From: Candidatus Karelsulcia muelleri
Lineage (GTDB): Bacteria > Bacteroidota > Bacteroidia > Flavobacteriales > Blattabacteriaceae
Direction of reading: 5' to 3'
NCBI RefSeq assembly: GCF_022985615.1
Contig: NZ_CP094965.1
Span: 120,001 to 152,000 of the forward strand
Length of the DNA: 32,000 nt
Shown here: piece after piece, positions 1-30,908 of the stretch
Numbering within the stretch: the first letter of the stretch is position 1
How the letters are laid out: every line of letters begins with the position of its first letter
Made by a program: the position numbers and the translations under genes
Notes under the pieces: generated by a model
What the model saw: only the letters and a program-made list of their open reading frames with translations
Database searches by the model: none
Told to the model about the DNA's origin: nothing

Positions 1-234
1 AAAATGGTAAGAAATTCCACAATAAAATTAAAAAGAGATAATAAAATTCTTTATGTGGGGAAATTAAATTCTTTGAAAACTTTTAAAAAAGATGTCAATG
101 TAGTAAAAAAAGGTTCTGAATGTGGAATAAATATTAAAAATTTTAATAATATAAAAATAGGAGATATTATAGAATCATATAAGGATTTAGGAGGGAGTTG
201 GAGAATGGGAGGAGAATCTAAGGTAATTTATTGA
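1..234 (+). CDS. infB: translation initiation factor IF-2, C-terminal fragment (5' end lies outside the window)
   Basis: Frame 1 is open from base 1. The translation ...KLNSLKTFKKDVNVVKKGSECGINIKNFNNIKIGDIIESY fits the conserved IF-2 C-terminal beta-barrel pattern (SLKrfKdDV..G.ECGI....GD.IE). TGA stop at 232-234. Confidence 0.8.
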   Translation, partial: KMVRNSTIKLKRDNKILYVGKLNSLKTFKKDVNVVKKGSECGINIKNFNNIKIGDIIESYKDLGGSWRMGGESKVIY

Positions 235-442
235 TATAAATCTGTATTTTTCTTTTTAATCTATTGGCTTTATTTTTATGTATAATTTTTTTTTTTGCTA
301 ATTTATCTATTAAGGATGAAGTTAAACTAAATTTTAGTTGTGCTATTTTTTTATCTTTTACTGATTTATTCTTTTTAATTGCAGTTTTTGTGGATTTAAA
401 AAAATATTTGTTGATTTTGGGAATTTTTTTATGTGAACCCAT
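218..442 (-). CDS. rpsT: 30S ribosomal protein S20
   Basis: 74-aa ORF. MGSHKK... at the N-terminus and ...IDKLAKKKIIHKNKANRLKRK match the S20 signature (M.NhKSa.KR ... dkaakkgvIHKNkAaR.KSrl). Converges on infB with a 17-bp overlap. Confidence 0.8.
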   Translation of the reverse strand: MGSHKKIPKINKYFFKSTKTAIKKNKSVKDKKIAQLKFSLTSSLIDKLAKKKIIHKNKANRLKRKIQIYINKLP

Positions 443-1223: not shown

Positions 1224-1700
1224 TTAATAATTATTTTTAGCAGAATTTATTATTTTTTCTTTACTCGGGTACCAAAGTTTAATTAAGTTTTTGGCATAAG
1301 GAGCTGGAGTATCTTCTAAAGTAATTCTTTTGATTGGAGCATCTAAGTAATCAAAAGCATATTTTTGTACTAAATAAGTAATTTCAGATGAAATAGAACA
1401 AAATGGCCAAGCTTCTTCTAGAATAATTAATCTATTAGTATTGTTTTAATGATTACATCATTAATAGCTGATTTTAAAAGCCCTTTAGCATCATATGCAT
1501 TAGATGGAACTACTACTTTTAATCCAGGACAATGAGCATACAAATTCTCTAAAGATTGTGAATGTGTAGCACCCAATTGACCAGCAAATCCTGTAGGGCA
1601 TCGAAATACTATTGGTAGTTGACCTCCACTCATTTGTCGGATTTTAGCAGCATTATTTATTATTTGATCTATAGCTACTAATGAAAAAAGTCATAAATTA
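1224..1700 (-). pseudogene. pdhB: pyruvate dehydrogenase E1 beta subunit remnant (N-terminus lost, internal deletion, frame changes)
   Basis: Minus-strand fragments translate as [77 protein letters not shown] and, in another frame, [70 protein letters not shown] (stop at 1224-1226). These match the middle and C-terminal parts of E1-beta. About 470 bp remain of a gene I expect to be near 1 kb. The junction lies near 1430-1445, and a 1-nt frame problem sits near 1690. No start codon or N-terminal domain remains before the rpoD stop at 1721. Confidence 0.8.
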
Positions 1701-7202: not shown

Positions 7203-9287
7203 ATGGGAACAAAGTTAAAATATACAAGAAATATTGGCTTTGCTGCTCATATAGATGCTGGTAAAACCACTACGACAGAAAGAATATTATTCTATACTGG
7301 AATAAATCACAAACTTGGAGAAGTTCATGAAGGGACTGCTACTATGGATTGGATGGCACAAGAACAAGAGAGAGGAATAACAATAACTTCTGCTGCTACA
7401 CGTTGTGAATGGAAAAATAATGATAAGATATATAAAATTAACATTATAGATACACCAGGTCATGTAGATTTTACGGTGGAAGTTGAAAGATCGTTAAGAA
7501 TATTAGATGGCTTGGTGATTTTATTTAGTGCAGTGGATGGGGTGGAACCCCAATCAGAAAATATTTGGTTACAAGCTGACAAATATAAAGTACCCAGAAT
7601 TTGTTTTATTAATAAAATGGATCGTCAAGGTGCAAGTTTTTTTGAAGTTTGTGATCAAATAGAAAAAGTACTAGATACTAATTGTTTGATCTTACAAATT
7701 CCTATAGGGAATGAAGAAAATTTTAAAGGAATTGTAGATATAATTTCTAATAAAGCCTTTATATGGAATGAAATTGACTTTGGCAGAACCTTAAAAGAAA
7801 TCCCAATTCCTTCGAATTTAATAAAATTGACTGAAGAATATCGTAAAAAAATGATAGAAAGGTTAGCTGAGGGTGATAGTAAACTTTTTGATAAATACTT
7901 TGATTCAAAAAACCAAATCACTGAAGAGGAGATAATAACTACTATAAAAAAACAGACCTTAAAACTGGAAATAACTCCTGTTATTTGTGGTTCAGCTTTC
8001 AAAAATAAAGGAATACAATATATTTTGGATGCAATATGCAGATTTCTGCCCTCACCGATAGAATGTAAAAAGATATACGGTTATAGTGTGAAGGAAAAAA
8101 AAAAAAAAAAGATTATTCCAAAGATTAATAACCCTTTTTCAGCTTTAGCATTTAAAATTTCTTCTGATCCTTTTGTTGGAAAATTGACTTTTTTTAGAGT
8201 ATATTCAGGAAAAATAAAATCTGGATCTTATGTTTTAAACAGTAGAACAAATAAGAAAGAAAGGATTTCAAGAATTTATCAAATGCATGCTAATAAACAA
8301 AATCCTATTAATTTAATTAAAACTGGTGATATTGGTGCAGCAGTAGGGATTAAAAATATTAAAACTGGAGATACTCTATGTGATATTAATAATCCAATTT
8401 TTTTAGAAAAGATATTTTTCCCAGATACAGTAATTGGCTTAGCTATTGAACCTAAATACAAATCAGATATAGATAAAATGAGTATGGCACTATCAAAATT
8501 AATAGTAGAAGATCCCTCATTACAAATTCGTAATGAGAAAACCACTGGACAAACAATAATTTCAGGAATGGGAGAGTTACATTTAGAGATTATTCTTGAT
8601 AGAATGAAAAGAGAATTTAACGTTGAAGTTAATAAAGGAAAGCCCCAAGTAGAATATAAAGAAATATTAACTAAAAAAGTTCTTCACAGAGAAATATATA
8701 AAAAACAAACTGGTGGAAAAGGTAAATATGCTGATATTCTATTTCAGATTGAACCAATAAAAAAAGATTTCCAAGGCTTAAAATTTGTAAACAAAGTAAA
8801 AGGAGGAAATATTCCGACAGAATTTATTCCTTCAATAGAAAAGGGATTTAAAGAATCTTTAAGAAATGGGCCTTTAGCAGGATACGAAATAGAAAAAGCT
8901 AAAATTATTTTACTTGATGGATCATATCATACAGTAGATTCCGATCAACTATCTTTTGAGTTAGTTAGTAAAATAGGGTTTAAAAATGCAGCTAAAAAAG
9001 CTAATCCATATCTTTTAGAACCTTTTATGAAGTTGGAAGTTTTTACTCCTCAAAAATATATGGGTATTATTGTTGGTGATCTTAATCGTAGAAGAGGTGT
9101 AATTCAAGGAATGGAAGATAAGCGAAAAAATGTAAAAATTATTAAAGCAGTAGTTCCACTCTCTGAAATGTTTGGATATGTCACTTCTTTAAGGACTTTA
9201 TCTTCGGGAAGAGCCACCTCAATAATGATGTTTTCTCATTATCAGAAAGCCCCTGAAAGGATTTGTAATAAAATAATATATAAATAA
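7203..9287 (+). CDS. fusA: translation elongation factor G
   Basis: 694-aa ORF. G1 AHIDAGKTT, G3 DTPGHVDF and G4 NKMD are present, with full domains II-V. It contains an A16 homopolymer at 8095-8110. Confidence 0.97.
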   Translation: MGTKLKYTRNIGFAAHIDAGKTTTTERILFYTGINHKLGEVHEGTATMDWMAQEQERGITITSAATRCEWKNNDKIYKINIIDTPGHVDFTVEVERSLRILDGLVILFSAVDGVEPQSENIWLQADKYKVPRICFINKMDRQGASFFEVCDQIEKVLDTNCLILQIPIGNEENFKGIVDIISNKAFIWNEIDFGRTLKEIPIPSNLIKLTEEYRKKMIERLAEGDSKLFDKYFDSKNQITEEEIITTIKKQTLKLEITPVICGSAFKNKGIQYILDAICRFLPSPIECKKIYGYSVKEKKKKKIIPKINNPFSALAFKISSDPFVGKLTFFRVYSGKIKSGSYVLNSRTNKKERISRIYQMHANKQNPINLIKTGDIGAAVGIKNIKTGDTLCDINNPIFLEKIFFPDTVIGLAIEPKYKSDIDKMSMALSKLIVEDPSLQIRNEKTTGQTIISGMGELHLEIILDRMKREFNVEVNKGKPQVEYKEILTKKVLHREIYKKQTGGKGKYADILFQIEPIKKDFQGLKFVNKVKGGNIPTEFIPSIEKGFKESLRNGPLAGYEIEKAKIILLDGSYHTVDSDQLSFELVSKIGFKNAAKKANPYLLEPFMKLEVFTPQKYMGIIVGDLNRRRGVIQGMEDKRKNVKIIKAVVPLSEMFGYVTSLRTLSSGRATSIMMFSHYQKAPERICNKIIYK

Positions 9288-9289
9288 AT

Positions 9290-9583
9290 ATGTTAAATTA
9301 TAAAATTAAAATAAAAGCATTTGACGGCTATATATTAAACCTATCAGTAATAAAAATTATTAATTACATTTCAAAGCAGAATATAAAAGTTATTGGACCA
9401 ATTACCTTACCAACTAAAAAAAAAATATATACCATTTTAAGATCTCCTCATGTACATAAAAAATCAAGAGAACAATTTAAATTGTTCATCCATAAAAGAT
9501 TTTTAGTGGTATATAATGTAAAAAAGATTTTAAAACCAATTGATCTCCCTAGTGGAGTAAAATTAGAAATAAAAAAATGTTAG
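9290..9583 (+). CDS. rpsJ: 30S ribosomal protein S10
   Basis: 97-aa [26 protein letters not shown] is the S10 signature, and the gene follows fusA as expected. Confidence 0.92.
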
Positions 9584-10224
9584 GACTAATTGGAAAGAAG
9601 ATAGGTATGACTAGTTATTTTAATAAATTAGGTTACTGTATACCCTGTACAGTAATAAAAGCTGGACCTTGTACAGTATTACAAAAAAAAAGTATAAAAA
9701 AAGATGGCTATTATTCTATTCAACTAGGGTTTGAAGATAAAAAAAAGAAAAAAACTAATAAACCTTTATTAGGCCATTTTAAGAAATTTAACTCCTCTCC
9801 GAAAAAAAGAATATTTGAATTTGCAGGTAATTTTTTAAATTCTCCAGGAGATATAATAAAAGTAGATTTATTTAAAGAAAATGATAAAGTAGACATAGTA
9901 GGAAAATCGAAAGGTAAAGGATTTCAAGGGGTTGTAAAGCGTCACGGTTTTTCAGGAGTGGGTGAAAAAACACATGGTCAACATAATCGTTCTCGTGCAC
10001 CTGGTTCAATTGGTGCAGGTTCCAATCCATCAAGAGTGTTCAAAGGGACCCGAATGGCTGGAAGAATGGGTGGAAAAAGAAGAACGATAAAAAATTTAAA
10101 GATTTTAAAAATAGATTTTAAAAGAAATTTATTAATAGTAAAAGGTTCAGTACCCGGTCACCAAAATTCTTATTTATTAATAAAAATAAAATTGGATAAA
10201 AATGATAATAGAAATTTTAAATAA
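9577..10224 (+). CDS. rplC: 50S ribosomal protein L3
   Basis: [15 protein letters not shown]..., [19 protein letters not shown] and [33 protein letters not shown] match L3. Confidence 0.95.
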
Positions 10225-21796: not shown

Positions 21797-21903
21797 TTTA
21801 TCGCATTGTTTGTTTTTAAACAAACAATGAGGAAAGTAAAGTATGTTAAGTATAAGTATAAGTATAAGTATAAGTATAAGTATGTTGATTTATCGCATTG
21901 TTT
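21788..21903. repeat. duplicated copies of the rnpB 5' segment separated by a (GTATAA)5 microsatellite
   Basis: A 50-nt block GTATGTTGATTTATCGCATTGTTTGTTTTTAAACAAACAATGAGGAAAGT at 21788-21837 is identical to 21906-21955, the true rnpB 5' end. A 24-nt partial copy lies at 21880-21903, and an 8-nt start (GTATGTTA) lies at 21841-21848. GTATAA x5 occupies 21850-21879. Confidence 0.92.
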
Positions 21904-22225
21904 AAGTATGTTGATTTATCGCATTGTTTGTTTTTAAACAAACAATGAGGAAAGTCTGGAATCACTAGGGATAACGCAACGGGTAACTCCCGTACATCGT
22001 GAGATGAGGAATAGTGCAACAGAAAGTATGTACAGTTGAGCTGTAGTGAAATCATGTAAACTCTGTGTTGTGAAATGCCAAATATACCAGAAGTATAGTA
22101 GTATAGTTCATCCCTAACTAAATATCTGCTAACTAAATATCTGGGGGGTAGGCAGATCGAGATAAAGGGTAACTTTTATCCTAGATAAATGATAAATTAA
22201 ACTGAATCCGGCTTATAACATACTT
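21904..22225 (+). ncRNA. rnpB: RNase P RNA (bacterial type A-like, reduced)
   Basis: The conserved blocks are present: GAGGAAAGTCTGG (CR-I/P4 5' strand), ACAGAAAGTATG, and AAACTGAATCCGGCTTATAACATACTT (CR-V/P4 3' strand plus P1 3' strand). The 5' AAGTATGTT and 3' AACATACTT pair as P1. Confidence 0.85.
22114..22143. repeat. perfect 15-bp tandem duplication inside the RNase P RNA gene
   Basis: CTAACTAAATATCTG occurs twice back to back, between the conserved core blocks of rnpB. Confidence 0.9.
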
Positions 22226-22229
22226 TTTT

Positions 22230-23906
22230 TTAAAAATATTTCTCTATATTATTTATATCTAATAAGAATAAGATTTTTTGTTTGAATTTTAATAAATTAT
22301 CAATTTTTAATATTTGTTTTATTAGCTTCCTTATTGTTAAGGAAGCAATCTTTTGTTTTGTTTCTAATTTATAAAAATTATATATATTTTTATATATTAA
22401 TTTTTCAATGATTTTATCATCTTGGTAAATATAAAGATCATATAATAACCTATATACATATATTTTTTTTAAAAACTTAGGAGAATAAGTAATTGAAATA
22501 GAATTTTCAAAACATTTTATTTTAAAACCAAAATTAATTAAAATTTCTATAATTTTGGTTTTAGTTTTTTTAGTAAAAAATTTATTCAATTTAATATTTA
22601 TCGGTGGGTATAATTTATAGATTTTGTGTTTTTTTATTTCTTTTTTAAACTTATCCTCTAAAATTATTTTATAGACTCTATCTTTATGAATAATTAAAAC
22701 ACCAAAATCTAAAAGACATAATATATATTTTTTATAGATCTTAAATTGGGTAAAATCCAGATCTATTTTCTTAAGATCTATTTTCTTAAGAAATATTTTA
22801 TTAAGAAATATTTTCTTAAGAAATATTTTATTAAGAAATTCTTGACAATTATTATTTAGGTTGCGGTTTTTTTCTTCTTTATCTTTTTTTTTAGAGTAAA
22901 ACTTAAAAATATTCTGTAGGCCTAAATATTCTTTAATTATTATATTTATATTTTTACAAATTTCTGACTCTGATTTAATGAGTATTTTGTTTTTGGATTG
23001 ACAAATATTAATTTCAATTTGTTTGGTTGGAATAGTAAGAAATAAAAAATAATTTGGTTTATTAGTTTTGTTTATTAGACCGTTATAGGCTTTAATAATA
23101 GACTTGTGAATTCTTTTGTTTACTACGTATCTATTATTAACAAACAAATAATAATTCTTAAATTGAGTATTAAAAAAACTTGTAGAAGTGATATATCCTT
23201 TTATAAGAAATAATTTATCTTTTTTAAAAACTTTGATTAAGACATTTTTATAATATTCGCCAAAAATTTTAATTATTCTATATTTTAGATTTGATTTTTT
23301 TAAACTGGTAATTATCTTATTATTATGCATCATAACAAAATTAATATCAGGGTGTGAAAGAACTATCTTATTAAATTCTGATATGATATATCTTAATTCA
23401 ATATGGGCAGATTTTAAAAAGTTTTTTCTATTGGGGAAATTGTAAAATAAGTTTTTCACATATATACTAGTACCATTTAATAAATTATTTAATAATACAG
23501 GGGGATATTTAAGCTTTTGATTTTCTAATGTTAAGAAGACTCCAAATTCTGATTTGGTTTTTTTAGTGTATATTTCTACCTGGCTAACTAAAGAAATATA
23601 GTATAAAGCTTCACCTCGAAAGCCTTTAGTATTTAGTGATTTGATATCTTTAAGAGAATATAATTTGGAAGTATAAAATCTCCTAATACTATTTTTCGCT
23701 TCTAAATGATTCATTCCATCACCATCATCTATAACATTAATTAAATCTTTCCCACCATTCAATAATATCAATTTAATATTTTTTGAATGTGCATCAATTG
23801 AGTTTTCTAATAATTCTTTTACTACAGAAGCTGGTCTTTTAATTACATATCCTGCTGAAATTTTATTTGAATCTTGTGTGGGTAGAATTTTTATGGTATT
23901 TTTCAT
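22230..23906 (-). CDS. mutL: DNA mismatch repair protein MutL homologue (N-terminal GHKL ATPase recognisable, C-terminal domain degenerate)
   Basis: The N-terminus reads IKILPTQDSNKISAGYVIKRPASVVKELLENSIDAHSKNIKLILLNGGKDLINVIDDGDGM...KGFRGEAL. In the C-terminal part I cannot find DQHA(x)2E(x)4E: the aligned position reads LIIHKDRVYKIILED. I also cannot find a CPHGRP-like motif. Confidence 0.8.
   Translation of the reverse strand: MKNTIKILPTQDSNKISAGYVIKRPASVVKELLENSIDAHSKNIKLILLNGGKDLINVIDDGDGMNHLEAKNSIRRFYTSKLYSLKDIKSLNTKGFRGEALYYISLVSQVEIYTKKTKSEFGVFLTLENQKLKYPPVLLNNLLNGTSIYVKNLFYNFPNRKNFLKSAHIELRYIISEFNKIVLSHPDINFVMMHNNKIITSLKKSNLKYRIIKIFGEYYKNVLIKVFKKDKLFLIKGYITSTSFFNTQFKNYYLFVNNRYVVNKRIHKSIIKAYNGLINKTNKPNYFLFLTIPTKQIEINICQSKNKILIKSESEICKNINIIIKEYLGLQNIFKFYSKKKDKEEKNRNLNNNCQEFLNKIFLKKIFLNKIFLKKIDLKKIDLDFTQFKIYKKYILCLLDFGVLIIHKDRVYKIILEDKFKKEIKKHKIYKLYPPINIKLNKFFTKKTKTKIIEILINFGFKIKCFENSISITYSPKFLKKIYVYRLLYDLYIYQDDKIIEKLIYKNIYNFYKLETKQKIASLTIRKLIKQILKIDNLLKFKQKILFLLDINNIEKYF
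22759..22839. repeat. 15-bp tandem array (about 5.4 units) inside mutL
   Basis: The units are AGATCTATTTTCTTA x2 followed by AGAAATATTTT(A/C)TTA x3, plus a partial unit. They encode FLNKIFLKKIFLNKIFLKKIDLKKIDL in the linker between the N- and C-terminal domains, in-frame. Confidence 0.9.
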
Positions 23907-26647: not shown

Positions 26648-27742
26648 ATGGCAGAGATAATTTACATGCCACGTTTAAGTGATACTATGAAAGAAGGTAC
26701 AATAGTAAAATGGTATAAAAAAGTAGGAGAAAAAGTATTAAATGGAGAAATTTTAGCAGAAATAGAAACAGATAAAGCTATTCAAGAATTTGAATCCGAA
26801 TATAAGGCTACTCTTCTCTATATAGGAGTTAAAGAAGGAGAAAAAGCAAAAGTAAATGATATTTTGGCTATTATGGGTGAAAGAAATGAAAATATAGATT
26901 ATTTAATAAAGAAGAATAAGAATAAAAAAATTTTAGTATCCCCATTAGCAAAAAAAATAGCTTTAGAAAAAGGTATCAAATTAAAAACCTTAAAAGGAAG
27001 TGGACCAAAAAACAGAATTGTTAAAAAAGACATAATAAAAAGTATCAAAACAAAAAATAATAAAAAATATAAAATTAAAAATATTTCTAATATAAGGAAA
27101 ATCATTAGTGAACGCTTATTAAAATCAAAAAAGATTTCTCCACATTATTATTTATTTATCGAAATTCCTGCAGATAATTTAATAAGATTTAAAAAATATA
27201 TTAATAAAAAATATACTAGTAAAATTTCTTTTAATGATTTAATAGTGAAAGCTACTGCTTTATCACTTAAAAAAAATCAAAAAATAAATTCTTCATTGAA
27301 GAAAGAAAGGATTATATATCACAAAGATATTAATATAGGTATTGCTGTTTCCTTACCGGAAGGACTAATTGTACCGGTAATAAATACCGTGGAAAAAAAA
27401 TCTTTAATAAAAATTTCCAAAGAAATAAAAGAAAAAATAAAAAGATATAGAAATAAAAAAATTTCTAACAATGAATTAGAAGGAAGTACTTTTACAATTT
27501 CTAATTTAGGTATGTTTGGGATAGATTGTTTTACTTCTATAATAAATCAACCTAATTCGAGTATTTTATCAGTAGGAAGTATTCAAAGAAAACCTATAGT
27601 TGATAAAAACAAAATAAAAATAGGAAATACTATTAAATTTACTTTAGCTTGTGATCATAGAATTATAGATGGTGTAATAGGTAGTACCTTTTTACTTACT
27701 TTAAAAGAATACTTATTAGAACCAATTACTATGTTAATTTAA
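26648..27742 (+). CDS. dihydrolipoamide acyltransferase (2-oxoacid dehydrogenase E2 component)
   Basis: The lipoyl domain (MPRLSDTMKEGTIVKWYKKVGEKV..GEILAEIETDKAIQEFES), the E3/E1-binding domain (VSPLAKKIALEKGIKLKTLKGSGPKNRIVKKDI) and the catalytic domain with LACDHRIIDGVIGSTFL are all present. It lies directly downstream of pdhA. Confidence 0.92.
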   Translation: MAEIIYMPRLSDTMKEGTIVKWYKKVGEKVLNGEILAEIETDKAIQEFESEYKATLLYIGVKEGEKAKVNDILAIMGERNENIDYLIKKNKNKKILVSPLAKKIALEKGIKLKTLKGSGPKNRIVKKDIIKSIKTKNNKKYKIKNISNIRKIISERLLKSKKISPHYYLFIEIPADNLIRFKKYINKKYTSKISFNDLIVKATALSLKKNQKINSSLKKERIIYHKDINIGIAVSLPEGLIVPVINTVEKKSLIKISKEIKEKIKRYRNKKISNNELEGSTFTISNLGMFGIDCFTSIINQPNSSILSVGSIQRKPIVDKNKIKIGNTIKFTLACDHRIIDGVIGSTFLLTLKEYLLEPITMLI

Positions 27743-28255
27743 TTTAGTAAGTAATCTTTTTTTGTTTTTAGGAATCTTTTTTAAGAACTCTATTCCATTA
27801 TTTTTAAATTCGAAAATAATGTTTTTAATACCATTTGTAAGAACGAGATATTGGCTTTTGAATCTCAAATAATATTTCATTATTTGATCAAAAGATTTAG
27901 ATGAAATCTTTACTTCAGGAGATTTACATTCAACCATTATAAATGGTCTTTTTTTTTTAAGAACTAGAATATCTATCCGATTTTTAATATTATAAAAAGT
28001 TGAATGGAATTCGACATATATTTCATGAACATTATAGCCTCTATTTTTTATTAGATAATAAATTATCTTTTGTCTCACTAATTCTTCTTTAGTTAAAAGA
28101 TAATATTTTTTTCTAATTAAGCAAAAAACGTACATTTTACCGTTAAATGTTTTTATCTTATTTTTTATATTACATTTATTCAATAGCTTGTAATTTCTTT
28201 TTTTTATATGATTATGATTAATCTTACAAATATTAAAATTAAAGAAATTAAACAA
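27734..28255 (-). CDS. HsdR_N-like (PD-(D/E)XK fold) domain protein of unknown function
   Basis: 173-aa ORF. LTKEELVRQKIIYYLIKNRGYNVHEIYVEF....NRIDILVLKKKRPFIMVECKSPEV....DQIMKYYL....YLVLTNG fits the pattern of type I restriction enzyme R-subunit N-terminal-domain-only proteins (E..VRQ...yL......i.vE.....R.Di.v......p.l.vECK......Q...Y.......tNG). The start is uncertain because the first 48 nt overlap the holA 5' end. Confidence 0.65.
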   Translation of the reverse strand: MFNFFNFNICKINHNHIKKRNYKLLNKCNIKNKIKTFNGKMYVFCLIRKKYYLLTKEELVRQKIIYYLIKNRGYNVHEIYVEFHSTFYNIKNRIDILVLKKKRPFIMVECKSPEVKISSKSFDQIMKYYLRFKSQYLVLTNGIKNIIFEFKNNGIEFLKKIPKNKKRLLTKLN

Positions 28256-29062
28256 ATTTCTCTTTTTATAGGTGAAGAAGAATATCTTATAAAAGAATAT
28301 ATAGAAGAGATAGAGAATCTTTTAAAGAACAGGATTCTAAATATATTATAGAAGTAAAAGAAGAAGATAGAATAACCAATATTTTACACTCTTACTCTAT
28401 TTAAAGAATATAAGTTAATTATTCTTAAAAATTCGTAAGATCTAAATCTAAGCTTAGATAACTTAGAAAAATTACTAAAAAAGACCTCGAAAAGAAATAT
28501 TTTCATTTTTTGTATTAATTTCGTAATTCACTCACGAAATTTATAATTTTATAATTTTATTAAAAAAAACACAAATAACAACATAGAAATTATAAATAAT
28601 AAAAAATTAACTTTTGGTGAAATTTTGTATTTAGTAAAAAGAAAAATAAAAAAAATAGGCTTAAAGATAAATGAAATAACAGTAAAAAAAATGATACAAT
28701 CTGTTGATTCCAATTTATTTATGCTTGAAAATGAGTTAAAAAAAATAAGATTTAATAATATTAATAATATAGCTGACAATTATAATTATAAACTTCTTCA
28801 TAATGAATTTAAAATAATTTTAAAGATGCTTGAAGTCCACCCCCTAACTTTAATCTTAAATAAGATATATAAACTATACTTAGAAAAAGTTATGACTTAT
28901 AATAATAATGAAGAAAAATTTAATAAAATAGCTAATTTAGTTTTTCTGCTAAAAGAAGCAGAGAAAAAAAATAAGAGCTATTTTTTAAAAAAGGAAGAAA
29001 TAATGAAAGAACTAATTTATAAAATATGTCAAATAGAGAAAGAGAAATCTTTGATTGTATAA
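28208..29062 (+). pseudogene. holA: DNA polymerase III delta subunit gene with five in-frame stop codons and no frameshift
   Basis: A single frame (frame 2) reads MIMINLTNIKIKEIKQISLFIGEEEYLIKEYIEEIENLLKNRILNIL*K*KKKIE*PIFYTLTLFKEYKLIILKNS*DLNLSLDNLEKLLKKTSKRNIFIFCINFVIHSRNL*FYNFIKK...KKLTFGEILYLVKRKIKKIGLKINEITVKKMIQSVDSNLFMLENELKKI...*. The stops are TAG 28349 and TAA at 28355, 28373, 28436 and 28544. The layout resembles delta (vYlf.GeE.yli N-terminus, kl.il.n. block, C-terminal ...a...l....g.dl..l.nEleKl). Confidence 0.75.
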
Positions 29063-29967
29063 TTATAGGAGGTGGTCCAGCAGGATATACGGCAGCCATT
29101 TATTTAGCTCGTGCAGAAATAAAACACCTTCTTTTTACAGGCTTTAAACCAGGTGGACAATTGATATCAACTAATAAAATAGAAAATTATCCTGGTTTTC
29201 CTGATGGGATATCTGGTTACAAATTAATGGAATCTTTTAAAGCCCAAAGCGAAAACTTCGGGACTAAGGTAAAAGATAATAGTGTAGTAAAAATTAATTT
29301 TAATATAATAAAAAATTGGCATGAAATTATCTTAGATAATTCTTTAAAAATAAAAACCAAAACACTAATTATAGCGACTGGAGCTTCTCCTAGATATTTA
29401 AATATTGAGAATGAAAAAAAATTAATTGGAAAGGGTATTTATACATGTGCAAATTGTGATGGCTTTTTTTTTAAAGGGAAAAAAGTAGCAGTAATTGGTG
29501 GAGGGGATAAAGCAGCAGAAGAATCTATTTATTTAGCTAATATTTGTAAAAAAGTATATCTAATAATAAGAGATAAAAAAATGAAAGCTTCAAAAATTAT
29601 GCAAAAAAAAGTTTTAAACATTAAAAATGTTGAAATATTTTATTATCATAAAGTTATAAAAATAATTGGAGAAAAAAAAATAAAAGCGATTTTTTGTAAA
29701 AACAGAAAAAATAATAATAATTACTTATTTAAGGTGGCAGCTCTTTTTTTAGCTATTGGGCAAATTCCAAATAGTCTTATTTGTAAACCAAATCTAAAAT
29801 TAGATAAATCTGGATATATAATTACAAAATATACAATTACTAATATTCCTGGAATATTTGCAGCAGGAGATGTGCAAGACACAAGATATCGACAAGCAAT
29901 CACCTCAGCTGGATCTGGTTGTATGTCTGCAATAGAGGTAGAAAAATACCTTATTAAAGTTCAATAA
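29026..29967 (+). CDS. trxB: thioredoxin-disulfide reductase
   Basis: 313-aa ORF. The FAD site is DCIIIGGGPAGYTAAIYLAR, the redox centre is CANCDGFFF, the NADPH site is VAVIGGGDKAAEE, and GIFAAGDVQD follows. Confidence 0.94.
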   Translation: MSNREREIFDCIIIGGGPAGYTAAIYLARAEIKHLLFTGFKPGGQLISTNKIENYPGFPDGISGYKLMESFKAQSENFGTKVKDNSVVKINFNIIKNWHEIILDNSLKIKTKTLIIATGASPRYLNIENEKKLIGKGIYTCANCDGFFFKGKKVAVIGGGDKAAEESIYLANICKKVYLIIRDKKMKASKIMQKKVLNIKNVEIFYYHKVIKIIGEKKIKAIFCKNRKNNNNYLFKVAALFLAIGQIPNSLICKPNLKLDKSGYIITKYTITNIPGIFAAGDVQDTRYRQAITSAGSGCMSAIEVEKYLIKVQ

Positions 29968-29990
29968 CCAACCTTATTAAAGTTCAATAA
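29948..29990. repeat. duplication of the last 20 nt of trxB, including its stop codon
   Basis: ACCTTATTAAAGTTCAATAA lies at 29948-29967 (trxB 3' end plus TAA) and again at 29971-29990, separated by CCA. Confidence 0.9.
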
Positions 29991-30175
29991 AGAATATAAA
30001 AGAAAAAATAAAAGAAAAAATAAATATTAGATACTTTATTAGATACTTAGAAGTTTTCTTTTCTTATCATGGATTAAGTACAAACAAACAAACATAACAA
30101 AGTACAAATAAACAAACAAACATAACATAACATAACATAAGTAAGTAAGTACAAACAAGTAAGTAAAGTACAAAC

Positions 30176-30247
30176 ATTATTTACATTTTTAATTCTTTTA
30201 TTATTTACATTTTTAATTCTTTTATTATTTACATTTTTAATTCTTTT
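30176..30247. repeat. perfect 24-bp tandem repeat x3 (ATTATTTACATTTTTAATTCTTTT)
   Basis: Direct reading: three identical adjacent units in the trxB-ilvC spacer. Confidence 0.9.
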
Positions 30248-30260
30248 TTCTTTTACAAAT

Positions 30261-30471
30261 AGCAGTTAGCTGCTAATCAGCAGTTAGCTGCTTATCAGCA
30301 GTTAGCAGCAGTTAGTTAGCAGCAGTTAGCTGCTAATCAGCAGTTAGCAGCAGTTAGTTAGCAGCAGTTAGCTGCTAATCAGCAGTTAGTTAGCAATCGT
30401 TAGCTAATGCTAATCAATCAATCAGCAAGCAGTTTGCTAATCAATCAATCAGTTAGTTAGCTAATGCTAAG
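30261..30471. repeat. relatively GC-rich minisatellite built from AGCAGTTAGC / TGCTAATC / TTAGC modules, with a 42-bp higher-order unit
   Basis: The region reads as A(AGCAGTTAGCTGCTAATC) A' B(AGCAGTTAGC) C(AGCAGTTAGTTAGC) A B C A C, followed by degenerate variants (..CGTTAGCTAATGCTAATCAATCAATC..). The B-C-A block (42 bp) occurs twice in tandem. All six frames contain stops. Confidence 0.9.
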
Positions 30472-30588
30472 TTTTAATAAGTATTTCTTAAAAAAGATAT
30501 TTATTATTTTATTATTTATTACTTTTATATTAAAAAAAGTTTTTTAGCGATTATTAATAAATTGTTGTAAACTAGGATCTTTATTAGG

Positions 30589-30648
30589 ACTTACTTACTT
30601 GTGTTTACAGTAACTTGTTTTTACAGTAACTTACTTGTGTTTACAGTA
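30589..30648. repeat. three tandem variants of an ACTT(ACTT)GTGTTTACAGTA unit
   Basis: The units are ACTTACTTACTTGTGTTTACAGTA / ACTTGTTTTTACAGTA / ACTTACTTGTGTTTACAGTA. The reverse complement resembles the GTAAGTAAGTACAAACAAGTAAGTAA tract at 30141-30176. Confidence 0.8.
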
Positions 30649-30908
30649 AATTGCCTTCATTTTATTCCAAAGTATTTTTTTTAAAAGCTATTATTTTAAA
30701 TAAATTCTTAAAAAGATCTCTTTTTTAAATTATTATTTTTTAATTATTAATTATTAGAAAGTTTATTTCTATTTCTTATATAAGAAGAGAAAATATATAG
30801 AAATAATTCTGATAATAAGATAAAATATCAATAAACAATTGTAAATAACATTTTTTGTTTTCTTTATAATATTTTTTTCTTTTTCTTTATCTTTTCGTTT
30901 CATTTATC

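Follow-up and report, generated by a model that had tools for sequence, protein, structure and literature searches.

The loss of holA, the gene encoding the delta subunit of DNA polymerase III, is on record in both leafhopper and treehopper Sulcia (Candidatus Karelsulcia muelleri): in the leafhopper symbionts Sulcia-ALF/MSEV the gene is absent along with dnaN, dnaX, holB and gyrAB, in Karelsulcia-DH it was lost with dnaE, dnaN and dnaX still kept, and in Sulcia-ENCA and Sulcia-CARI it is retained. Delta is dispensable or has been lost repeatedly in Sulcia. The closest described case comes from Pyrops planthoppers, three of which yielded Sulcia genomes of 155.8-156.7 kb (Deng et al. 2023, Genome Biol Evol 15:evad120; PMC10333215). 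In that paper holA is retained in the symbiont of P. clavatus and pseudogenised in the other two; as far as the accessible text shows, the gene is classified there by ORF length only. At the level of the family, the reference is the E. coli delta subunit, the clamp-loader 'wrench' (PDB 1JQJ, 1JQL, 1JR3), to which Sulcia delta is connected by homology via the NCBIfam holA model TIGR01128; the two share 12-14% identity and only positions 1-174 of the 316 in the model are matched. The copy described here cannot encode the delta protein.

We analysed this copy in the window, i.e. the whole stretch of 32,000 nucleotides under study, and compared it with the same locus in four genomes: CP094963.1 (L001; 156,700 bp, holA intact), CP094964.1 (L002; 155,888 bp, holA broken), an intact outgroup planthopper Sulcia (L003) and CM132409.1 (L004; 142,646 bp). 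The one intact copy in L001 and the two broken copies in L002 and the window match the pattern in the Pyrops Sulcia (PMC10333215), which represent the same organism group and the same locus, and the window strain is probably the Sulcia of a Pyrops planthopper. L001 would be the strain of P. clavatus, and L002 and the window those of P. lathburii and P. viridirostris, in either order. Worked out here, on the alignments, is the lesion-by-lesion anatomy: a shared TAA, compensating deletions of 10 and 11 bp, and independent decay in two lineages. Taken together, the region 28208-29062 is very probably a non-functional, recently inactivated holA pseudogene in a Sulcia genome of roughly 156 kb.

Identity and gene neighbourhood of the locus

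The locus and the features that overlap it are the following:

28208..29062, plus strand: holA pseudogene (DNA polymerase III delta subunit), whole extent; assigned by TIGR01128, orthologue identity and synteny
28208..28333, plus strand: N-terminal segment of holA with the original frame kept, codons 1-42 (M...NR); collinear with residues 1-42 of the orthologue P0001
29026..29062, plus strand: overlap of 37 bp between trxB and the 3' end of holA; the intact trxB spans 29026-29967 (ORF list; Pyr_redox_2, E=1.5e-46)
27734..28255, minus strand: small protein with an HSDR_N_2 domain, upstream divergent neighbour (PF13588, E=2.7e-29)

In the frame of the ATG at 28208, translation of 28208-29062 yielded 284 codons and the terminal TAA at 29060, with five internal stops (TAG at 28349; TAA at 28355, 28373, 28436 and 28544) and with the codons of 28547-29059 open. 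The stops and the open remainder had been described in the same way in an earlier reading of the sequence only, and were reproduced. The other two plus-strand frames contain 42 and 47 stops, and 2000 shuffles of the region gave 31.7 ± 5.2 stops (minimum 18), as compared to the 5 observed. The frame of ATG 28208 is clearly the former coding frame, as its openness is far above chance.

TIGR01128 matched the stop-masked translation with E=1e-14 (54.6 bits) and the frame-corrected translation (see next section) with E=4.2e-20 (72.3 bits); both scores lie below the curated cutoff of 80 bits, which the intact orthologue P0001 passes with 83.6 bits. In a protein search seven proteins came up, all of them from Candidatus Karelsulcia (Sulcia) muelleri. 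First among these is P0001 (290 aa), which bears the annotation 'DNA polymerase III subunit delta [Ca. Karelsulcia muelleri]', originates from a sister Karelsulcia genome, carries PF06144 and shows 90% amino-acid identity. The earlier observation that delta-like sequence continues across the stops thus holds, on the strength of the masked TIGR01128 match and this identity. The Pfam model PF06144, proposed at the same time as the means of recognition, gave no match with the masked or the corrected window translation (hmmscan, even at E<=1), TIGR01128 having matched instead; the precomputed annotations do place PF06144 on the orthologues P0001, P0002 and P0007. An AlphaFold2 model of the intact P0001 (6 sequences) reached a mean pLDDT of only 47, and with this low-confidence model Foldseek returned as top matches the E. 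coli delta chains 3gli_F, 1jr3_D, 3glf_A and 1jql_B, at E about 1e-3 and TM 0.3-0.4, a weak hint of the three-domain, AAA+-like fold of clamp loaders. A comparison of the holA profile with the PDB sequences gave no delta match, and a search of a genome-contig collection with the holA alignment, apparently a collection without planthopper Sulcia, matched 600 patterns and confirmed no relative.

The gene order in the window, based on Pfam, is: pyruvate dehydrogenase E1-alpha, E2, the HSDR_N_2 gene, holA, trxB and ilvC. The E2, HSDR_N_2, trxB and ilvC genes flank holA likewise in L001, L002, L003 and L004. By these combined signs the window sequence is recognised as a descendant of holA. Of the other clamp-loader and clamp genes, dnaX, holB and dnaN were sought and not found in the 32-kb window and in 10 kb of flank to its left; the supplements of PMC10333215 do not list them, and the planthopper literature gave no status either.

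The neighbours call for some comments of their own. The trxB protein of the window is identical to that of CP094964.1, and constraint on 29026-29062 belongs to trxB and not to holA, because these 37 bp overlap with the intact trxB. The overlap of the HSDR_N_2 gene with the start of holA is probably an artefact of the TTG start that yields the longest ORF; the orthologue in L003 (141 aa) starts further downstream, and the true start is probably internal, near 28135. The HSDR_N_2 protein, which resembles the N-terminal part of the type I restriction enzyme R, is kept beside holA in all planthopper Sulcia examined, in genomes of 142-157 kb, and the four differences between the window gene and that of L001 are all non-synonymous.

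Elsewhere in the window several further features were encountered. At 4-234 (plus strand) and 218-442 (minus strand), the window begins inside the 3' end of infB (weak match to GTP_EFTU_D2; IF-2 at the matching place in L005), which is followed by rpsT, tRNA-Glu, rpsP and tRNA-Gln. In the spacer at about 1225-1720, an ORF of 68 aa (1427-1633, minus strand) matches positions 103-156 of the 174 in Transket_pyr; it is what remains of acoB/pdhB, the gene for pyruvate dehydrogenase E1 beta, and is far more eroded than holA. Deng et al. (2023, PMC10333215) report acoB/pdhB as a pseudogene in the two Pyrops Sulcia in which holA is one too. The rsmH-mutL spacer (21797-22229, 430 bp) contains TAAGTA x6 (21847-21883), perfect repeats of 26 bp x2 and 15 bp x2, and 52-bp duplicated segments (BLAST). 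The mutL gene itself (minus strand, 22230-23906) carries a 15-bp x5.1 tandem repeat within the coding region (22764-22839), and the MutL lengths of 553, 558 and 563 in the three Pyrops Sulcia differ in steps of 5 aa, consistent with changes in copy number of the 15-bp unit; RpoA varies in length as well (341, 346 and 349 aa). The trxB-ilvC spacer (29968-30908) comprises some 940 bp of non-coding DNA with dense tandem repeats of period 4-42 bp, among them a 24-bp unit x3 at 30176-30247, with 100% matches, and a 42-bp unit x2.7 at 30278-30389; it measures only about 340 bp in L003, and a spacer of this kind is unusual in a genome this compact.

Lesions of the window copy and their history

The lesions were read from DNA alignments, of the window with L001 and of the window with L001, L002, L003 and L004 (5-way):

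28333..28334, plus strand: 10-bp deletion, AGAAAAAAAT lost; R43-K45 and part of Y46 are gone and a frameshift results; the 10 bp are present in L001-L004
28336..28386, plus strand: stretch with the ancestral +3 frame, SKYIIEVKEEDRITNIL; its frame-3 translation equals residues 47-63 of P0001 exactly
about 28381..28387, plus strand: 11-bp deletion, GAAAATTTTTA lost; removes E64-Y67 and returns frame 1; window-specific in the alignments
28436..28438, plus strand: TAA from GAA (G>T) at codon 84 of 290; TAA also in L002, GAA in L001 and L003, CAA in L004
28504, plus strand: A>C (TTA>TTC, L106>F), a derived change that affects an invariant residue and falls on the common stem of the window and L002 (alignments)
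28544..28546, plus strand: TAA from GAA (G>T) at E120, window lineage only; GAA in L001-L004, E120 invariant in the intact orthologues
about 28746..28747, plus strand: 6-bp in-frame deletion (CAAATA/ACAAAT) between AAATA direct repeats, window-specific (alignments)
28885..28889, plus strand: D232>E (C>A at 28885) and F234>V (T>G at 28889), both derived on the common stem of the window and L002; neither residue varies among six intact orthologues

The 10-bp deletion between 28333 and 28334 is window-specific, and the lost stretch includes an A8 run. With frame 3 used for 28336-28386, TIGR01128 scores 72.3 instead of 54.6 bits. The junction of the 11-bp deletion lies between two TTTTA direct repeats, with the ancestral AATATTTTAGAAAATTTTTACAC present in L002 and L003, and such a repeat-flanked junction suggests that this deletion arose via replication slippage. 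Frame 1 resumes at 28388; the frame of holA was restored because the 10-bp and 11-bp deletions add up to 21 bp. Three of the five internal stops, the triplets at 28349, 28355 and 28373, are accordingly read in the alignments as out-of-frame by-products between two frameshifts, not as nonsense substitutions. The only true nonsense substitutions are those at 28436 and 28544, both GAA>TAA.

These results divide the claims of the sequence-only reading. It had counted five nonsense codons, of which only the last two stand, and it had named AT-biased substitution as an easy way to generate them, which the two GAA>TAA changes fit. That no indel or frameshift had accumulated is contradicted by the 10-, 11- and 6-bp deletions that the alignment to an intact orthologue exposes. 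On the sharing of the stops, which it had left to comparison with related symbionts, the outcome is mixed: TAA 28436 is common to the window and L002, but TAA 28544 belongs to the window lineage only.

When the two missing stretches were put back and the two T>G changes were reverted, an uninterrupted ORF of 291 codons was obtained. Since the repair of four lesions yields an open ORF, the window copy contains exactly four disabling lesions. A full-length delta ORF is absent from the window on account of two frameshifting deletions and two nonsense substitutions, and the locus was therefore filed as a holA-derived pseudogene and not as a functional member.

At some 98-99% identity to L002, and about 96-99% to L001, the window represents a third strain. 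Across 12 neighbouring genes, 18 sites separate it from L002 and 51 of 10,923 separate it from L001, with about 54 between L001 and L002, which makes the window and L002 sisters. The dS of the neighbouring genes among the three strains amounts to only about 0.004-0.007. TAA 28436 is the sole disabling lesion common to the window and L002. Only L002 (holA at about 9146-10037) shows TAT>TAG, a deletion of 6 bp and a tandem duplication of 16 bp (TTTATCTTTTTATAGG); the latter two lie near the 5' end and result in a net +10, an uncompensated frameshift. The lesions found only in the window are the -10, -11 and -6 deletions and TAA 28544, and in total the two holA copies are separated by 5 indel events and 4 substitutions. 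Because TAA 28436 is shared and the other lesions differ, parsimony suggests that the gene died in the common ancestor of the two strains and then decayed separately in each lineage. On that history both frameshifting deletions postdate TAA 28436, and for that reason their sum to a multiple of three cannot stem from selection on delta function.

A further broken copy occurs in L004 (CM132409.1, 3001-3857) at the same locus and with the same synteny, where holA is split into ORFs of 159 aa and 110 aa. Its lesions, GAA>TAA after codon 159 and a 1-bp deletion, are situated mid-gene and are unlike those of the window; these differences point to a separate inactivation event.

Substitution pattern and alternative readings

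Relative to L001, 12 of the 834 aligned sites of holA differ (1.4%), as compared to 0.47% for the 12 neighbouring genes (51/10,923; Poisson P=7e-4), i.e. a substitution rate about 3x that of the neighbours, and the divergence also exceeds the dS of the neighbours of about 0.007 (P=0.02). Polarised against the outgroups L003 and L004, all 8 derived substitutions on the stem or the tips of the pseudogene clade were non-synonymous, an outcome with a chance of 0.17 under neutrality and of <0.01 at omega=0.3. After 28546 there are only 2 derived substitutions, D>E at 28885 and F>V at 28889, and a comparison of dN/dS before and after this point is underpowered and allows counts only.

The course of events that we place beside the observed lesion map, sharing pattern and rate acceleration is as follows. 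GAA>TAA at 28436 would have arisen first, in the common ancestor of the window strain and CP094964.1, after which the inactivated gene would have drifted neutrally. The window lineage would then have gained the 10-bp deletion, the 11-bp slippage deletion at the TTTTA repeats, TAA 28544, the 6-bp deletion and missense changes, an order of window-specific events that we infer from the alignments, and the sister lineage its 6-bp deletion, 16-bp tandem duplication and TAT>TAG. The unbroken frame is then an accident, in that -10 and -11 sum to -21; such a frame-restoring sum has a roughly 1-in-3 chance for any second indel, and L002, with its +10, shows the other outcome. The long open C-terminal stretch reflects only the little time that has elapsed, corresponding to about 0.5-1% divergence.

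The sequence-only reading had offered two explanations for the preserved frame: that the gene had died recently, with which the low dS among the three strains agrees, or that a C-terminal product or stop read-through is still under selection. The latter is not borne out, as the frame was restored by the -10/-11 pair, the C-terminal changes strike invariant residues and the window lineage has lost 6 bp from this part as well. In its more specific form, this explanation has a C-terminal delta fragment made from an internal start (TTG 28625 or ATG 28691) and selected, e.g. to fill the delta position in the clamp-loader collar. An ORF of 145 codons (TTG 28625 to 29062) does persist in the window and one of 147 codons in L002; the last 172 codons in the window and the matching part in L002 are open, and this part is the same in both except for the 6-bp in-frame deletion. 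However, about 6% of the point substitutions in the open C-terminal part create stops, so that with only 2 substitutions its openness is expected by chance, and both of these substitutions replace residues that are invariant in six intact orthologues. The stops do lie in the first 40% of the gene, as had been pointed out, but the excess of lesions there, 7 of 10 events, falls short of significance (binomial P=0.052). Moreover, the last 37 bp are constrained by trxB, a promoter and terminator scan of the holA region stayed at background level (12 promoter sites found vs 13.5 expected), and in the independent break of L004 it is the C-terminal part that is out of frame. We consider the selected fragment highly improbable. 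The same ORF (28625 or 28691 to 29062) as a collar-only fragment or, alternatively, a clamp loader that runs without delta or with a host-supplied substitute for it, in strains that keep dnaX and dnaN, is together given a slim chance.

That holA still functions, be it by read-through of the stops, by recoding or by correction of the message after transcription, is extremely unlikely, even if Michalik et al. (bioRxiv 10.1101/2025.05.16.654412) speculate that the symbionts of planthoppers might repair some broken ORFs post-transcriptionally: any repair would have to deal with four independent lesions of three kinds, the 21 missing bases encode the invariant residues R43, K44, Y46 and E64, and the substitution pattern is neutral. 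The orthologues have sense codons and no shift at each lesion site, so the lesions are lineage-specific and coincide with no conserved recoding sites. TAA is the normal terminator of 31 of the 38 normal genes in the window (TAG 5, TGA 2). Reassignment of stop codons was ruled out separately, as TAA, TAG and TGA all terminate normal genes in the window. One may also ask whether the lesions result from errors of sequencing or assembly, or whether they are minority alleles in a symbiont population that is polyploid and still bears intact holA copies, considering that the genomes were assembled from Nanopore reads, that the 10-bp deletion contains an A8 run and that the 2025 preprint (10.1101/2025.05.16.654412) says that broken ORFs may be unfixed variants. 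Against this, the Pyrops Sulcia assemblies underwent medaka, at least two Pilon rounds with Illumina reads and a read-mapping check (PMC10333215); 10-, 11- and 6-bp deletions and G>T changes are not typical homopolymer errors; TAA 28436 is seen again in a genome that comes from a different host species and was assembled independently; and Deng et al. (2023) themselves scored holA as a pseudogene. This possibility carries very little weight, and the preferred reading stays that of a recently inactivated pseudogene.

Meaning for the erosion of the replication machinery

The loss of holA is ordinary genome decay and is already known. The earlier suggestion that delta is lost only from the most extremely reduced genomes is compatible with a genome of about 156 kb, but losses of holA from Sulcia are already well on record. 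In the leafhopper and treehopper Sulcia with a recorded loss the gene is gone, whereas in the window it is caught within about 1% divergence of its death and an intact sister copy exists. The method lesson is that in-frame stops with 'no indel' can mask a compensating pair of frameshifts, which here accounts for 3 of the 5 stops. At <1% divergence, the intact copy and the two that decay independently offer a small but clean view of the spectrum of neutral mutation in Sulcia: indels come about as often as substitutions, 5-bp repeats flank the deletions, and tandem duplications occur. The trio would also serve a study of how Sulcia comes to dispense with delta. The loss as such documents one step in the way a symbiont genome of roughly 156 kb loses its replication genes, and it means little beyond bookkeeping; if a delta-less loader were true, the recent loss together with the intact sister genome would constitute a natural experiment on the dispensability of delta.
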